Virus record (IMG/VR): IMGVR_UViG_3300030097_000525
Span: 1-38,928 of that record
Reading direction: 5' to 3' (one strand)
DNA length: 38,928 nt
Source of the DNA: a virus
Taxonomy: Duplodnaviria > Caudoviricetes
The position numbers were made by a program, and so were the translations under genes. The notes below the pieces were generated by a model. The model was not told the DNA's origin. It was given only the letters and a program-made list of their open reading frames with translations, and did no database searches. Positions within the stretch are counted from its first letter, which is position 1, and every line of letters starts with the position of its first letter. This document shows positions 9,770 to 19,558 of the stretch, one piece after another.

Positions 9770-12294
9770 TGGCAGAAGCAGCAACTAAACAAGTATCAAA
9801 TTGGGAGGGGGTTTTGAATCCCTTCACTAATACCTTTGACCGAATCCGGGCAGATGTAGATGCTATTCTTGCACAGCAGAGACAGGTCACTGAACAATAT
9901 CCTGATCAGGCCGAAGCAATTAAAAGAATGGCACTTGATCAAATTCACGCAACCCTTGCAGACGCAGGTGTCTCACCTGATGAATATCGGAAAACACTAA
10001 AAACCGAAAAACAGTATAGCCTCGACTTCGGAGATGATCCTTTCACATACACAAAAGGAATTGCTCGAGCACTTGGTCAGGGTTTATTCTTGGGTGCTGG
10101 TGACGAGTTAGAAGCATTCGTTACTCACATGATCAAGAACAAGCTGATGCTTAATGAAAATAATACTGAGCAGACCTATATGGAAGTGCTTGCAGATATT
10201 CAGGCAGGGATTTCTGCATTTGAGAAAAAGAATCCCGGTGTCTCTCTTACGTCTGAAATTATCGGTGGACTTTACTTTCCGGGTTACACAGCAGGAGTTC
10301 GGGCAGCACGGGGTCTAACCAAAGGTCTCAAGCTTGGTCCGGGTGGGAGAGAAGCTGCTGCACAAGGTCTTGTTGGTGCAGGTGCAGGTACTTTCTATTC
10401 TTATGCAAAGGATCGGGAGGTCAGTCCTTTTGATCCACTTATTGCAGGAGGAGCTTCTGCAGGATTCTCAAGACTCTTAACTAAATCAGGAGAACTCAGA
10501 AGGGGAGCAGACGCAGATATTGCAGAATCAAAACTCACACAGATATCAGGTCCGGGGGGAGTACTTCAGGATCAACCGATTTCTTTGGGAACCAAGATCA
10601 AGAGCAAGCTTCCAAATATTCCTGCTGCACCCGGTGGTCCTCCGGGTAAACCTCCCGGTGAATTAGGTGCTCCGGGTAGTCAAGGATTTCACGAAGCTGC
10701 AATGAGAGAAATAATTCAGGCAGCAGATGACGAAGGTGTTACGTTTGGAGATCTCCTTATGAGGTTAGATGATTACGTTAAGGCAAATCTTGGTGAACAT
10801 GTACGCACAATTGACTTAGTAGATGAGGGAGGTGACATTGCAAGGACTATAAGAGGTCTGACAATTGATAACCCCAAAGCATCTGCTTCTAAGAAATCTT
10901 TTCTAAAGAGACAGATAGAAGCAAAGCAGAGAACGATTCCAAAAATCTTTTCTCTGTTTGATCCTGAAGGAAAAATGAATGTAGAGGGAATTAATAATAA
11001 TATTCTTAGGTGGGTTAACAAATCAAAAGATATCAGGCAGACAAAAGCTCAACCACTCTATGACGAGTTTGACAAGTTAACTCTCTTCGATCCGACAAAG
11101 GGAGGGGGGAACCCACTTGGGGAACAGTTGTGGAATCGGATCAATACTGCAATGGAATATGATAAAGGTATTAAGAAAGCTTGGACTTCTGCAGCAGGTA
11201 AACTTGCGTGGAATGATCCCCGGCTTGCACACACCCTGCACGAAAATATTTTAACAGGGAAGCGCTTTGACGCTTTCAAGAAAAAGCTTGACGGTCAAAT
11301 AGGAGAACTACTTGCAAAAGGTAATGTGCAGGAAGCTAAAGACTTGATAATTGTTAAGAATGAAATGCTCCAAATGGTGGATACGATTGTTGAGCAGAGT
11401 ACAAAGGCAAAACCGGGGCAGGGTGTGTATCAGCAGGCAAGGAATATTTACTCAGGATCTCACGGTGCAGATAGTGCTTTTGAATTAGGAACAGGAGCAG
11501 TTAAATCTCACAAGGGTTCTAACTATTCGTCAGACGAATTTGAGGTGCTCTTTGATAAGCTAACTGATTCTGAAAAAGCTTTTACTAGACTAGGTTTTGG
11601 TCAGGCATTAAGAGAAGCACTTGAGAGTGATATGACTGAGCTTACACCAAACGTTAGGAAGTTAATTTTGGGAGGTGCTAAACCGAATCACCTTGAGAAA
11701 AAATTCCACTATGTGTTTAAACATGATTTCAAAGCACCTAATATTGCAACGTCAAAAGGCATGATAAAAAGTGGCAAGGAACGTTCAAAAGAATTTGTTA
11801 ACGTATTAAATAAAGAAGCAAAGTTCTTAAAGTCCTACCGCGCACTTTTTGGTGGTTCTGATACTGCTGCGAAAATGTCTGATGTAAACAGATTAACTAA
11901 CAAACTTTCTGACGTAGTTCAAACCGCAGCCGACTTAGGACCGGAGGCTTTAATTAGAGGAGGTGTTCCTTCAGTAGGATTATTCTCCAAAGCAGGGCAG
12001 TTTGTTACGTCAAAATTTTCTGAAGCAAAGCGCAGGCAACTTGCTCGCGAAAAATATGGTGGTGAGATTGCCGAGATGCTAATGAGAGAGGGTGGAGATA
12101 TTAAAGCTTCAAAGCTCAAACAAACTCTTGAGGATCTAGAAAGATATAAGAAGCAACTCGATCTTGAAAACTATAAAGGCTTGTTTGGTTACAAACCTTA
12201 CAAACAGATCCCAAGGCTCGGAAGATATTCCCTGCTTCAACCCGGTCCGATCCCAGAGGTTTCATTCCCTATTGACGTACTCGAGAACAGGTGA
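9769..12294 (+). CDS. Large DNA-ejection / internal virion protein
   Basis: ARALGQGLFLGAGDELEA and GGSDTA motifs are typical of podovirus injection proteins; last gene of the late operon. Confidence 0.7.
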   Translation: MAEAATKQVSNWEGVLNPFTNTFDRIRADVDAILAQQRQVTEQYPDQAEAIKRMALDQIHATLADAGVSPDEYRKTLKTEKQYSLDFGDDPFTYTKGIARALGQGLFLGAGDELEAFVTHMIKNKLMLNENNTEQTYMEVLADIQAGISAFEKKNPGVSLTSEIIGGLYFPGYTAGVRAARGLTKGLKLGPGGREAAAQGLVGAGAGTFYSYAKDREVSPFDPLIAGGASAGFSRLLTKSGELRRGADADIAESKLTQISGPGGVLQDQPISLGTKIKSKLPNIPAAPGGPPGKPPGELGAPGSQGFHEAAMREIIQAADDEGVTFGDLLMRLDDYVKANLGEHVRTIDLVDEGGDIARTIRGLTIDNPKASASKKSFLKRQIEAKQRTIPKIFSLFDPEGKMNVEGINNNILRWVNKSKDIRQTKAQPLYDEFDKLTLFDPTKGGGNPLGEQLWNRINTAMEYDKGIKKAWTSAAGKLAWNDPRLAHTLHENILTGKRFDAFKKKLDGQIGELLAKGNVQEAKDLIIVKNEMLQMVDTIVEQSTKAKPGQGVYQQARNIYSGSHGADSAFELGTGAVKSHKGSNYSSDEFEVLFDKLTDSEKAFTRLGFGQALREALESDMTELTPNVRKLILGGAKPNHLEKKFHYVFKHDFKAPNIATSKGMIKSGKERSKEFVNVLNKEAKFLKSYRALFGGSDTAAKMSDVNRLTNKLSDVVQTAADLGPEALIRGGVPSVGLFSKAGQFVTSKFSEAKRRQLAREKYGGEIAEMLMREGGDIKASKLKQTLEDLERYKKQLDLENYKGLFGYKPYKQIPRLGRYSLLQPGPIPEVSFPIDVLENR

Positions 12295-12295
12295 A

Positions 12296-12577
12296 TGTAA
12301 GGAGTGTGTAACACCTTGAACTAAAAAAAGAAGTGTAAGGGGTGTCCCGAGAAAGTTCTTTTGTGTCAACTGCAAGGGATTACAGAGGTTTAAAATATAA
12401 GATATTATGCATCATAATCTTATTATACTGTCATAGGTTAAAGTATAAAGTGAGTAATTGCAAGGGTTTTCAAGGGTTTAGGCTTTTTATTTTGATTAGG
12501 TAGGTAGGAAATGTAAGGGGTTATGTAAGGGGTTAGAGAAGTGTAAGGGGTGTCCCCTGTCCCCTCAAGGGACACCC
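12296..12577. promoter_or_regulatory. Putative attP: arm-type direct repeats around an AT-rich core
   Basis: TGTAAGGGGT at 12334, 12512, 12524 and 12542, with a variant at 12296. Exact 20-bp repeat at 12329-12348 and 12537-12556. Non-coding, downstream of the integrase operon. Confidence 0.65.
12548..12577. terminator. GC-rich hairpin between convergent operons (possible terminator)
   Basis: GGGTGTCCC-N12-GGGACACCC perfect 9-bp stem; no strong U-tract. Confidence 0.35.
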
Positions 12578-12583
12578 TATTAG

Positions 12584-14214: not shown

Positions 14215-14468
14215 ATTACTCCTTTTGAAGTGGCCTCCTTGAGACCGGGTTAACTCATTTATATAAAATGAGATTTAATTTTAAACTATTTCGACAAAAA
14301 CCTCAAGCAAAAAATGTAAAATAATGAAAATAAATGAAAATAATTTATTTCCTCAATGATTTCATGAGGATAAATAGTGAAATAATTTGGTGTAAGGGGT
14401 GTAACTCCTGACATTTTCTATCTTTTTTTAAAGCTTGAGGTTTCTTCAAAAAAAAGTAAAATAAGTTG

Positions 14469-15746: not shown

Positions 15747-16677
15747 GCTAACTAAAGAAGTAGTGCTAAAGCACTGCAATATATACGATGAAGAATTCAG
15801 GGTTACAGTACCTGATCCTTCCTTTAATCTGCAACGCACATATGAAGTAGCTGCTGCAGAAGTTCAAAAGAATAAGAGACTACAGGAGTGCAGCATTGAA
15901 AGCATACTGGAGTCAGTTAAGCAGGCTTGTTATTTGGGACTAGAACCTTCCTCAGTAACAGGTGAAGCCTACCTAGTTCCCTACGGTTCCAAGTGTACCC
16001 TAGTTATAGGTTATAAAGGTCAACTCGAATTAATGTATCGTGGTGGTCATGTTACTTCGGTTTGGGCATATCCTATATATGAGTCAGATCTACCAAACGT
16101 TGACATTCAACTTGGAACCAATCCCCAAGTAAAACACTCACCAACACTCGGAGCAAGCCGGGGTGAATTAGTTGCTGTTTATGCTTGTGCAGAAATCCCC
16201 AACTCGGATCAGGTTAAATTCGATTTCATGACTCGAGAGGAGTGTGATCGGATCAGAAGCAAAAGTGCAGGAGCACATTCAAAAGCACACCCTTGGAATA
16301 CAGATTATGAAGCAATGTGTCTCAAGAGTGTGATTAAAAAAATGTCTAAGACTATCAGCAAAAAACAGAACGTTCATGCTGAACGTCTTAGTTATGCCTC
16401 TGTTGCAGCAGAGGATACTGGAGAAGGTCAGACTATTACTTTAGGTACTACCGACTTTCAAACTATAACCAATCAAGAGGAGACAGATGAAAAAGGAAAA
16501 GAGTCAAGTGATGAAGGAAGTGGACAAAGCAGTACGAGAAGTCCTATCGAGATCGATAAAGAAAATGCCCCAAAACCAAAGCGAACCCGAGGAAGAAAGC
16601 CAGTTGTTCAGCAAGAAGGATCTCAAAGCAGCATTGAAGAGGGTGCAGAACAGGGAACTAACCTCTCAGCAGCGTAG
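15730..16677 (+). CDS. recT: RecT family single-strand annealing protein
   Basis: LGLEP..GEAYLVPY..IGYKG and PW.TDYEAMCLKSVIK motifs. Confidence 0.92.
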   Translation: MRQLTKLTKEVVLKHCNIYDEEFRVTVPDPSFNLQRTYEVAAAEVQKNKRLQECSIESILESVKQACYLGLEPSSVTGEAYLVPYGSKCTLVIGYKGQLELMYRGGHVTSVWAYPIYESDLPNVDIQLGTNPQVKHSPTLGASRGELVAVYACAEIPNSDQVKFDFMTREECDRIRSKSAGAHSKAHPWNTDYEAMCLKSVIKKMSKTISKKQNVHAERLSYASVAAEDTGEGQTITLGTTDFQTITNQEETDEKGKESSDEGSGQSSTRSPIEIDKENAPKPKRTRGRKPVVQQEGSQSSIEEGAEQGTNLSAA

Positions 16678-16855
16678 ATCTGCACTCAACGTTTACATGA
16701 TAATGAAAAACAGTAATCTTCGCAGTTCAAATCCAAGTTGCAGGATAGGTAAAAACGAGAGAACCACATTCCACGGTGATGACGTGGATTATGCTTATCC
16801 TTATTCTCACAGGTACAACGAAAGTGACTCGGATCGAGGCGCAACAGATGAATAA
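16487..16855 (+). CDS. Hypothetical protein overlapping the recT 3' end
   Basis: GAGGAG RBS before the ATG; 191-nt overlap with recT. Confidence 0.55.
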   Translation: MKKEKSQVMKEVDKAVREVLSRSIKKMPQNQSEPEEESQLFSKKDLKAALKRVQNRELTSQQRRSALNVYMIMKNSNLRSSNPSCRIGKNERTTFHGDDVDYAYPYSHRYNESDSDRGATDE

Positions 16856-17045
16856 GGAAAAAGGGGTAGATTGGGACGAAAAACGGTGGAAACAACACTG
16901 GGCAGGTCTAAGAAAAAGTCAAAAGAAAATGAAAAAGAAGTTTATGTGGTTGGTCCTAAAGGTCTGACTTTTTATGTAGTGACAACCCTTCTTGCCTATA
17001 AAACGAAGGATAAGTTTAAGGGGTTCATAGTCAAAGTAAAGGAAA

Positions 17046-17309
17046 ATGATTTCAGAAACAGAGTGGTCAGAAATAGATAGAAAAATGAAGGAAGGTTCTG
17101 GTGAAGAACCTAGTCAAAAACATTCTCTAAAAGGAGAAACTTTGAGTCCAAAAGAGACAGGAGAGAAGATTAAAGAGCACGAACAAATCCTGATAGAAAT
17201 GAGGAAGGAAATAAGTGCTCTCGGCTTCACTTTAGCACAGCATCAAAGTTATTTTGAGTTGCTCCAAAAGTTATCTGAGCAGCAGAAAATAGAAGTCGTT
17301 AAAAACTAA
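17046..17309 (+). CDS. Hypothetical coiled-coil protein
   Basis: AAGGA RBS; C-terminal heptad pattern. Confidence 0.65.
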   Translation: MISETEWSEIDRKMKEGSGEEPSQKHSLKGETLSPKETGEKIKEHEQILIEMRKEISALGFTLAQHQSYFELLQKLSEQQKIEVVKN

Positions 17310-17421
17310 AACTAAAGTGCTTGAATACCTAATCTGGAAGTATTCTATTCACATAGCATTAACGTGGACAATTATATACTTTTGGGATAAACCCTTCGTG
17401 TATTAATTCACCTTAACAAAG

Positions 17422-17596
17422 CAAACGAGTTCACAAGGATAGGTGACGTTTGACTAACAGGTTGACGTTAGACCTAGAGGCTAAGACAGGCGCAAGGGTT
17501 TCTCATACTAAAACTACCTTGCTTTCTGACCTGTTAAAACGATAACGAATATCTGTCTACCAATCCAGGATAGATATTCTGAAGTTGTCTCTAGGT
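17422..17596 (+). ncRNA. Candidate pseudoknotted structured RNA
   Basis: Five helices in an ORF-free gap, two of them crossing; G-U pairs favour the + strand (see findings). Confidence 0.6.
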
Positions 17597-17628
17597 ATAG
17601 CACACTTTAACAACTAATAGAAAGGAAG

Positions 17629-17877
17629 GTGAAGATGTTGGCAGTAAAGAAGAAGAAACGAGGTAGACCCTTTAGTCTGTTTAAGCATTCAAGTAGGGGT
17701 AGACCTAAAGAGAGTATTCAAAGAGCGTTTCTGTTCTATTTAAAATACTCAAAGGCAAGGCACGTTCTCAAAGTTTGTCAAGGACGTGATTTAACTATAA
17801 CTCAATACTTCGATGATCTGGTTACAAAGGATCTCGGATCAAAATCTAATAGGAAGGAAGAATCCAATGGCAGGTAG
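17629..17877 (+). CDS. Small DNA-binding protein (two AT-hook-like RGRP motifs plus a ribbon-helix-helix-like C-terminus)
   Basis: KKRGRP and RGRPK, then a strand-helix-helix pattern; strong RBS. Confidence 0.55.
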   Translation: MKMLAVKKKKRGRPFSLFKHSSRGRPKESIQRAFLFYLKYSKARHVLKVCQGRDLTITQYFDDLVTKDLGSKSNRKEESNGR

Positions 17878-18107: not shown

Positions 18108-18872
18108 ATGCTCAAGGAAGAGCAACCAAAACAACTAGACAGTTTTATAAAGTTGTTCCGCAAAGCTAAAAGAAATCCCCTGTTTAAAAAGCCTTTGACA
18201 TTTCATTATTTCACCTACTGTTTGCTATCAGCCTGGTGGAGTGACGAACCTACCAAATTCAATCTTGGTGGGGTTGAGATCCTTATTCGGAAGGGTGAGT
18301 TTGCAACAACACTGAAAAGGTCTGCTTATGAAACTGGCCTTAGTATTCAGAATGTTAGGACTGCAATTAAGGCTTTAAAGCTAACAAACGTTCTAACAGA
18401 GGATCTAACAAGGTCACTAACAAACGGTGGAAGGGTCTTAAGGGTCTGTAAATACTCAGTTTATCAAGCTAAAAAAAGTGAAGGTAACAGACCTACTAAC
18501 AGACCCTCTAACAGACCCTCTAACAAACAAATAAAGAAGGTTAAAAAAGAAAGTATTAATAAGCCCCCTTATATTCCCCCACAGGGGAATTTCAAGGATA
18601 GTCACAGATCTAAGATTAGAAATGTGGGTCTATTCAGGCAACTAGTTAAGGGTTATCTCAACATAGAAACGAATGACAAATCACTCAACAAAAGGATCAA
18701 TGAAAAATATAAGCTCAACAGAACTGCTGAAGAAGCAAAAGAAGAGCTCCTCCGAGAAGGACGTGACGAAGGACGTTCAGAACTGGGCAGCAGTGAGGTC
18801 AAAGACTGTCAGGTTATTCAGAATGCAGACAACAGGAATACCCAACGGCAAGGGAGGGTTCAGAACAAATAG
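18108..18872 (+). CDS. Replication initiator (phage replisome-organiser type, winged helix)
   Basis: SFIKLFR and I.KGEF.T...L...TGLS.QNVRTAIK.L motifs; internal iterons. Confidence 0.8.
   Translation: MLKEEQPKQLDSFIKLFRKAKRNPLFKKPLTFHYFTYCLLSAWWSDEPTKFNLGGVEILIRKGEFATTLKRSAYETGLSIQNVRTAIKALKLTNVLTEDLTRSLTNGGRVLRVCKYSVYQAKKSEGNRPTNRPSNRPSNKQIKKVKKESINKPPYIPPQGNFKDSHRSKIRNVGLFRQLVKGYLNIETNDKSLNKRINEKYKLNRTAEEAKEELLREGRDEGRSELGSSEVKDCQVIQNADNRNTQRQGRVQNK
18381..18527. repeat. Iteron arrays, putative replication origin
   Basis: (C/G)TAACA at 18381, 18393, 18405, 18417 and at 18484, 18496, 18508, 18520; exact 12-bp period. Confidence 0.8.
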
Positions 18873-19266
18873 CGAAAAAGGTGCACCTGACTTTCTTGGA
18901 GTCTATCTACTCGCAAAGATCCCGGTGCTGTTTGCATTTGAAATCAAATCACCTCAAGGAAAACAAAGTGGTACGCAAAAGGCTTGGCAGGACAGAGCAG
19001 AAGAATTCGGAGTCAGTTACTTCATTATCAAGTGCTGGCAAGATGCAGAAAGTGCGATACAGAGGCTCCACAAGAAGCATCGCAGGAAAATACACTGGGG
19101 ATTCCTTGGACCTAAGTTCCCTGAACACGTCACCCTTGACAAAAAACTTTGGGGAAACTTTAAAGATTCCACCGGGGAAACTAAAAAAACAACTAGAGGA
19201 AGTTCTGTCCCTGACCCTAAGAACAAGAAGCAGTCTGACAAAGTTCGAGACAACCCGGGAGGCTGA
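18700..19266 (+). CDS. VRR-NUC family nuclease / Holliday junction resolvase-like
   Basis: G.PD..FEIKS..GKQS..QK.W motif; ATG at 18700 follows AAGGA (the track start is 18673). Confidence 0.8.
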   Translation: MKNISSTELLKKQKKSSSEKDVTKDVQNWAAVRSKTVRLFRMQTTGIPNGKGGFRTNSEKGAPDFLGVYLLAKIPVLFAFEIKSPQGKQSGTQKAWQDRAEEFGVSYFIIKCWQDAESAIQRLHKKHRRKIHWGFLGPKFPEHVTLDKKLWGNFKDSTGETKKTTRGSSVPDPKNKKQSDKVRDNPGG

Positions 19267-19558
19267 AGAGTTTGAAGCTGAGATCGAAAAATATCTGCCA
19301 AAAGATATTGGAGTATTTATTATCAGAGAGACTGAAGTAAACTGTTATCAGATAACTTATCGGAAGAAAGAAGATAAACTAACAGATGCTATCACATACA
19401 GGGGGGTCAGAAATCACCTTCATGCTCGATTTAAAGATCCAAAAATAGAGAAAGAGATAAAACGTGCCTTCCAAAGATCCTACTTTGCCAAAAAGAACAA
19501 AGCAGATAAGCTCAAAAAAGGGACTGAGAAAACAGAGAACCGCAGATCTAAAAACTGA
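18881..19558 (+). CDS. Hypothetical protein; true start probably near 19106-19140
   Basis: The C-terminal half looks protein-like; the N-terminal part shadows the VRR-NUC gene. Confidence 0.45.
   Translation: MHLTFLESIYSQRSRCCLHLKSNHLKENKVVRKRLGRTEQKNSESVTSLSSAGKMQKVRYRGSTRSIAGKYTGDSLDLSSLNTSPLTKNFGETLKIPPGKLKKQLEEVLSLTLRTRSSLTKFETTREAEEFEAEIEKYLPKDIGVFIIRETEVNCYQITYRKKEDKLTDAITYRGVRNHLHARFKDPKIEKEIKRAFQRSYFAKKNKADKLKKGTEKTENRRSKN

Follow-up and report, generated by a model that had tools for sequence, protein, structure and literature searches.

Genomic context of the RNA block

The analysed window is a virus record of 38,928 nucleotides (38.9 kb) belonging to a temperate tailed phage. The record is nearly complete (98%), and the relatives of this phage are uncultured and come from marine metagenome collections; a host was looked for and none was found. 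The minus strand carries a tyrosine integrase, and the plus-strand gene order after it is a RecE-like exonuclease, RecT, small genes, a DnaD-like initiator, terminase, portal, capsid and tail. The gap at 12270-12580, past the last rightward gene, holds several copies of the motif TGTAAGGGG, with a further copy at 14391 upstream of the integrase, and these copies are possibly integrase arm sites around attP. From RecT to the RNA (16487-17406) there is a cassette region in which the small genes differ from relative to relative; in the relatives L004 and L008 it contains a gene that we take to be AlpA-like. A lambda-type replication origin lies inside the initiator gene (18378-18425 and 18481-18528), with two blocks of four 12-bp iterons flanking an A-rich spacer. 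The window has seven to eight iteron cores, as do 12 of 13 relatives, the contig of the thirteenth ending early, and an iteron core also occurs once at 17454, within the P1 strand listed below, in 4 of the 11 P0-bearing loci examined. Two long frames (18673-19266 and 18881-19558) overlap each other, and the first of them has a weak VRR-NUC match, under the Pfam cut-off.

The RNA block is placed between a 29-aa ORF (17317-17406) and the gene for a probable ribbon-helix-helix (RHH) protein (17635-17877). The original prediction described the gap as free of open reading frames, which holds from 17407 on but not before this position, where the 29-aa ORF recurs in relatives. The encoded peptide is hydrophobic and Trp-rich, is kept in L002, L005 and L009-L011, and has no Pfam match; in L003, L004 and L008 a 54-aa protein carrying two CxxC-like pairs takes its place. 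Its presence is not coupled to that of the RNA core. The product of the downstream gene gave no Pfam or PHROG match, and its Atlas look-alikes are named RHH/CopG at 0.93-0.94, which is taken as a lead only. The features of the block are as follows.

17407-17414, plus strand: predicted long-range partner of 17626-17633, over the ribosome-binding region (p 0.93 in the window)
17422-17452, plus strand: P0 hairpin, distinct from the core and found whether or not the core is there; invariant 6-bp stem and loop of variable length in 20 of 20 rows
17455-17464, plus strand: 5' strand of the originally predicted P1, an optional competitor for 17527-17536 outside the deleted unit; 70% paired
17468-17471, plus strand: predicted to prolong the closing stem outward by pairing with 17597-17600, from flank pairing
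17472-17596, plus strand: core, an optional RNA domain of 125 nt with a predicted three-way junction (matches of the covariance model R2, consensus fold, whole deletion)
17472-17481, plus strand: 5' strand of the closing stem (originally P2), pairing with 17587-17596; 98.9% of cells paired
17482-17484, plus strand: junction strand UAA; two of three bases invariant in six lineages
17485-17490, plus strand: 5' strand of the nested helix, pairing with 17530-17535 and competing with P1; 100% paired in nine variants
17492-17522, plus strand: arm A hairpin (originally P3; 17492-17497/17517-17522); 96.2% paired, five of six pairs invariant
17523-17529, plus strand: bulge 3' of arm A; variable, with none of 10 columns invariant
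17536-17546, plus strand: conserved junction, 3-bp helix (17538-17540/17584-17586) and purine-rich internal loop; seven of eight unpaired columns invariant
17547-17579, plus strand: arm B hairpin (originally P4) with an invariant 9-nt loop, 17559-17567; 89.5% paired
17587-17596, plus strand: 3' strand of the closing stem, pairing with 17472-17481
17635-17877, plus strand: downstream gene for a probable ribbon-helix-helix DNA-binding protein with two RGRP motifs

Folding of the window sequence

The strands of P0 to P4 were found at the positions first proposed for them and pair as listed there, with 12 bp in P4, 10 bp in each of P2 and P1, 6 + 4 bp with a 2-nt bulge in P3, and 6 + 4 bp in P0. 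Folding of 17422-17596 gave a z-score of -4.17 on the plus strand, better than 200 of 200 shuffles, and a weak -1.86 on the minus strand, better than 189 of 200. A 133-nt core reached -5.21, under all 97 tiles of the genome (lowest tile -4.50). The best single fold does not include P1: in it, 17530-17535 pairs with 17485-17490, stacked under P3, and P2 closes a three-way junction. In the full-length ensemble, computed with a program that cannot score pseudoknots, the probability of this nested helix was 0.92 versus 0.00 for P1. The nested helix shares the 3' strand of P1, a competition missing from the original prediction, and the alternative hairpin given there instead (17454-17471) is not retained across the aligned variants.

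Homologues and range of the core

Using two downstream proteins as queries, 10 IMG/VR records were collected (5 with the core, 2 with P0 alone, 3 with neither), together with 28 metagenome contigs (9 with the core, 11 with P0 only, 6 with neither and 2 not reaching upstream). Among the nine core-bearing contigs, one was identical to the window, three duplicated IMG/VR rows and one was partial. The distinct full-length variants of the core numbered nine, in about six lineages, and four of these nine rows belong to a single clade (L033 clade). All variants, with lengths of 133-139, occupy one fixed locus upstream of the same gene, at one copy per genome, and score 119-159 bits with R2. A contig of run X2 supplied the 3' half of one further variant, with junction and loop bases unchanged.

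Four motif scans of IMG/VR (18, 61, 12 and 94 stretches) returned the same five records each time and no further member. R2 gave no convincing match on the other scan stretches (best stray 16.6 bits; for the first scan, 7 of 13 stray loci were scored, one for most sets of near-identical rows), and a pattern scan of IMG/VR for P0 retrieved 7 records only, none of them new. A motif scan of GTDB for the core resulted in 16 matches, all by chance, and BLAST against GenBank phages, plasmids and E. coli genomes was negative. Likewise, R2 matched none of 30 other phage records, most of them fragments, and, in a run without a positive control, none of 101 sampled bacterial genomes of one phylum. Comparison with Rfam, proposed from the outset as a check, yielded no match in the window at gathering level, and none to the core of six variants at E up to 10. 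A tRNA or tmRNA reading was rejected, as ARAGORN found 0 such genes in the window. A literature search, with the alignments and positions of the candidates of Fremin et al. outside the comparison, returned no description of the core RNA. The core is a real, uncatalogued motif, absent from Rfam 15 and narrow in range.

Consensus fold and covariation

Judged from the aligned sequences, the core (17472-17596) likely folds as a nested, three-armed three-way junction. In alignment A5, which was fitted to the model and represents few (about six) lineages, 95.7% of 328 cells were paired under this fold and five pairs had changed on both sides; none of 500 shuffles was as high, and slid controls were 35-50% paired. 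RNAalifold, unaided, produced the same junction fold, and in a MAFFT alignment the nested helix 17485-17490/17530-17535 was paired in 100% against 70% for P1, which is broken in five of the nine variants. Covariation among homologues, which was to decide on the predicted pseudoknot of P1 and P2, is therefore present in the core but supports the nested junction, and the pseudoknot does not stand as the conserved fold.

The two-sided changes are unevenly distributed: four of the five fall in arm B, where they concern 4 of 12 pairs, and the fifth is in the closing stem (L052), which has three more pairs changed on one side. No two-sided change was seen in the nested helix or in the 3-bp helix, the junction helices being invariant or changed one-sidedly. 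The nested helix has two one-sided changes and an ensemble probability of 0.92-1.00 in six variants and of 0.17-0.66 in three. The 3-bp helix is invariant, hence carries no covariation information, and is weak (p 0.06-0.66). In single-sequence folds of the four L033-clade variants, one arm departs from the consensus. As for P3, its 6 bp at 17492-17497/17517-17522 were borne out, whereas the extra four pairs lack conservation; the apical loop of this arm varies from 17 to 23 nt, with 9 of 23 columns invariant. A contact of 4-5 bp between loops A and B is possible in eight of nine variants and of 3 bp in L032, being short and AU-rich. Outward from its anchor pair the closing stem is predicted to extend over 6-13 pairs, five of these within the stem, and its own flanks are the best pairing partners in four of six lineages.

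The bias of G-U pairs to the plus strand, initially put forward as a sign of selection on RNA, is real but weak (10 G-U versus 3 A-C column types, p 0.046). Besides, folding energy was lower on the plus strand in all nine variants and the z-score better in eight. The claim of an uncatalogued structured RNA on the plus strand is supported by the consensus fold and the negative Rfam searches.

Conservation against neighbouring sites

The baseline was the set of four-fold sites in genes nearby, of which 71 of 160 are invariant across six lineages, and the segments compared with it were picked after the alignment was viewed. Loop B (17559-17567) was invariant at 9 of 9 positions (p 0.0009), the junction and internal-loop bases at 12 of 15 (p 0.008), and the paired columns of the core at 48 of 74 (p 0.003). 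When all unpaired columns were pooled, 30 of 58 were invariant, which is not above four-fold sites (p 0.21). No reading frame within the core is conserved across the variants, and a small-peptide reading was rejected. In L033 (3069-3237), L053 and L056, the core can be read without a stop in the frame of the downstream gene, probably by chance, as the fourth variant of the clade (L057) breaks this frame.

Status of P1 and the HDV-ribozyme reading

P1 is broken in L052 and in the four L033-clade variants, which retain every other feature. On the MAFFT alignment, six of its ten pairs depart by mismatches only; of its three two-sided changes, one (L002) fits the nested helix equally well and two lie at the ragged inner end. 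The 5' strand of P1 is also retained, without a partner, in eight core-less rows, with L055 differing by one base. In the window, L002, L031 and L032, P1 is the stronger duplex (-10.5 to -13.3 versus -6.6 to -10.6 kcal/mol for the nested helix), modestly above chance (8-19 of 300 shuffles as strong), and it dominates in a transcript ending before the closing stem (p 0.68-0.99). The L033 clade has a substitute partner for P1 in its P0 loop, which is weaker and not above chance (30-75 of 300 shuffles; 159 of 300 for L052). P1 is not the conserved fold and may serve as an intermediate in folding or as a switch specific to a subclade; a pseudoknot may form in the four P1-bearing variants, the folding program not scoring pseudoknots.

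HDV-like ribozymes have a G1 at the cleavage site, a P1.1 of 2 bp and a short P3 with a 7-nt loop. They are described as a nested double pseudoknot in which P1 crosses P2 and P1.1 is needed (PMC13635239, PMC10879173), with the catalytic cytosine at the first J4/2 position (PMC10879173). At the corresponding position of the core, i.e., the first base after P4, U is found in five variants including the window, C in three and G in one. P1 starts with U at 17455, and the P3 loop measures 17-23 nt. A strict HDV descriptor of our own design matched none of the nine variants, and a relaxed one matched six of them, at two unrelated places and not in the proposed topology. The order P1-P2-P3-P3'-P1'-P4-P4'-P2' from which kinship with the HDV family was first suggested can form in the window and in three further variants. 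However, with P1 broken in five variants, a catalytic position divided among U, C and G, a U at the start of P1, no match to the strict descriptor and none in Rfam, an HDV-like ribozyme is hardly credible.

Presence, absence and loss of the core

A tree was built from 27 downstream sequences, leaving out nine duplicate, one partial and two uninformative loci. P0 is confined to one well-supported subclade of 20 rows, ten with the core and ten without. The distribution of the core on this tree needs four changes (three to five in bootstrap), and no bootstrap tree gives a single one; the starred (supported) branches alone do not demand more than one change. Empty alleles are of three junction types, the flanks of each resembling a different core-bearing lineage. 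None of the ten empty rows retains half of the core, and the P0 hairpin and the ribosome-binding site remain in them. We read the empty alleles as repeated loss of the core through at least three junctions. Slippage across the base of the stem would give the same clean pattern without selection; since stem geometry alone suffices for loss of the whole unit, such loss is no proof of modular function. P0 itself may be a separate RNA signal or a protein site.

Expression context

The core always lies 23-35 nt upstream of the ribosome-binding site of the downstream gene, and no plus-strand terminator was found in the gap. A long-range pairing similar to that of 17407-17414 with 17626-17633 is predicted in nine of nine loci with the core and in five of six without it, although the best single fold does not always contain it. 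Loci with the core (0.26-0.57) and loci without it (0.27-0.77) overlap in the predicted accessibility of the ribosome-binding region, and hence no expression platform is evident. The riboswitch-like leader once proposed is accordingly not borne out, there being no terminator and no change in predicted ribosome-site access with the core. Among 48 translation-start regions of the phage, no antisense target of the loops was above chance, with 64-83 of 100 shuffles doing equally well, and the simpler use that remains is the binding of a protein. In the recorded RNA run, cover is confined to 17618-17819, and the run covering the 3' half of the core is only guessed to be RNA. This look at expression took in two runs with a small share of words, so lack of cover over the core carries no weight. 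No protein partner, promoter or cut site of the core was identified, and no RNA ends were seen in the runs.

Interpretation

The core is conserved in sequence, covaries, occupies one fixed locus and is lost as a whole unit. Our tentative reading is that it is a dispensable, stand-alone RNA domain whose invariant bases in the loop and the junction would be offered to a partner protein. The core would be transcribed with the RecE/RecT-to-replication operon as part of an early rightward transcript, and its 10-bp closing stem and extension would join both ends, letting the domain fold independently of the ribosome-binding site. A double-strand RNase could then excise it as a small RNA of about 130 nt, whose invariant single strands would form a binding surface, the RNA being a decoy or a ligand for a host or phage protein. 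Should its benefit be conditional, slippage across the stem base would remove the core repeatedly while the lineage survives. That the core founds a new class of phage catalytic or decoy RNA, self-cut or released, with a loop that disarms a host protein, seems rather unlikely.

Other readings place the action in cis or in catalysis. In a leader switch of the RHH and replication genes, P1 would form first on the nascent RNA, and upon completion of the closing stem, or with a ligand or protein, the nested helix would replace it and tune downstream expression. The fixed distance to the same ribosome-binding site, the strength of P1 and its dominance in nascent folds in four of nine variants (again 8-19 of 300 shuffles as strong), and the weaker substitute partner offered by the P0 loop of the L033 clade would agree with such a switch. 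Yet P1 is missing in five of nine variants, its substitute is not above chance, there is neither a terminator nor a predicted shift in access, and 10 of 20 rows keep the gene without the core, making the switch unlikely. Small ribozymes resemble the core in their size and in their patchy presence in phage intergenic DNA. Theta ribozymes (PMC10879173) are the phage example of this resemblance. The concentration of invariant bases at the junction, internal loop and hairpin loop, and the contact of 4-5 bp between loops A and B possible in eight of nine variants, would suit a self-cleaving ribozyme of an undescribed class cutting the polycistronic early transcript. However, no Rfam ribozyme (including hammerhead, twister, twister-sister, pistol and hatchet) matches the core of six variants at E up to 10, the hammerhead core is absent from the variants, the loop contact is short, AU-rich and broken in L032, and no RNA ends were seen; such a ribozyme is quite improbable.

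A slender chance is left to the core being a relic or a MITE-like small mobile DNA element, in which the fold would arise from the inverted ends and no RNA function would exist at present. It has near-perfect inverted ends of 11 bp, with TATA at both ends in L002, and is present or absent as a unit; against this, there is one copy per genome, always at the same locus, none in the 101 sampled bacterial genomes (one phylum) or in plasmids, the empty sites differ by lineage with no single target site restored, and the interior covaries and retains G-U pairs. It is very unlikely that the core is an antitermination element of the put or nut kind, which would modify RNA polymerase before it reaches the replication and late genes. 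The place of the core, with the lambda-type initiator gene and a long run of same-strand genes downstream of it, would be appropriate, as would the run 3' of the core (17603-17612), which we take to be boxA-like. Elements of the put/nut type are required for growth, whereas half of the subclade does without the core, and the boxA-like run varies, several rows having a changed copy or none. Finally, similar size, three-way topology and a few loop words, which looked alike to the eye and are partly visible in the alignment, are shared with 5S rRNA, and the core could be a captured, diverged copy of it or a mimic titrating ribosomal proteins. This is most improbable, as RF00001 has no hit within the window at E up to 10, R2 with its filters off scores none of six real 5S genes, and global alignments have a mean z of 0.38 over 54 pairs.

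Significance and comparison with known systems

Cataloguing of phage accessory functions has so far been almost wholly of proteins. The core, an RNA supported by covariation, resembles an accessory gene in its behaviour, being found at a fixed locus in half of a subclade and lost whole several times. The natural pairs with and without it, together with the nine variants, make testing cheap. Self-cleavage by the core would establish a new class of ribozyme, and binding to a protein of the host would make it a phage decoy RNA of a new kind. With so narrow a range, the reach of these results is restricted for now.

The phi29 pRNA and 5S rRNA are RNAs of about 120 nt in which a three-way junction joins two hairpin arms and a closing stem. 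The core has no covariance-model match to either and can be dispensed with, unlike the phi29 pRNA; the loop-loop complementarity possible in the core would amount to only 4-5 bp and is broken in one of nine variants. Three-way-junction riboswitch aptamers are similar in their place 5' of a gene, their conserved junction bases and their variable stems. Unlike riboswitches, the core has no expression platform that was found and no downstream metabolic gene, and it is lost in half of its close relatives. The HDV, CPEB3 and phage theta ribozymes share the originally predicted helix order, the phage intergenic place and the patchy presence, whereas the fold of the core is nested, without a conserved catalytic C, a G at the start of P1 or a P1.1, and with no tRNA adjoining. 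Fremin et al. (PMC10690425) report 8,495 orphan phage structured-RNA candidates of 29-151 nt from IMG/VR 3.0. These candidates and the core are alike as covarying intergenic RNAs of marine Caudoviricetes, the size of the core being in their range, and the core may be one of these unnamed candidates.
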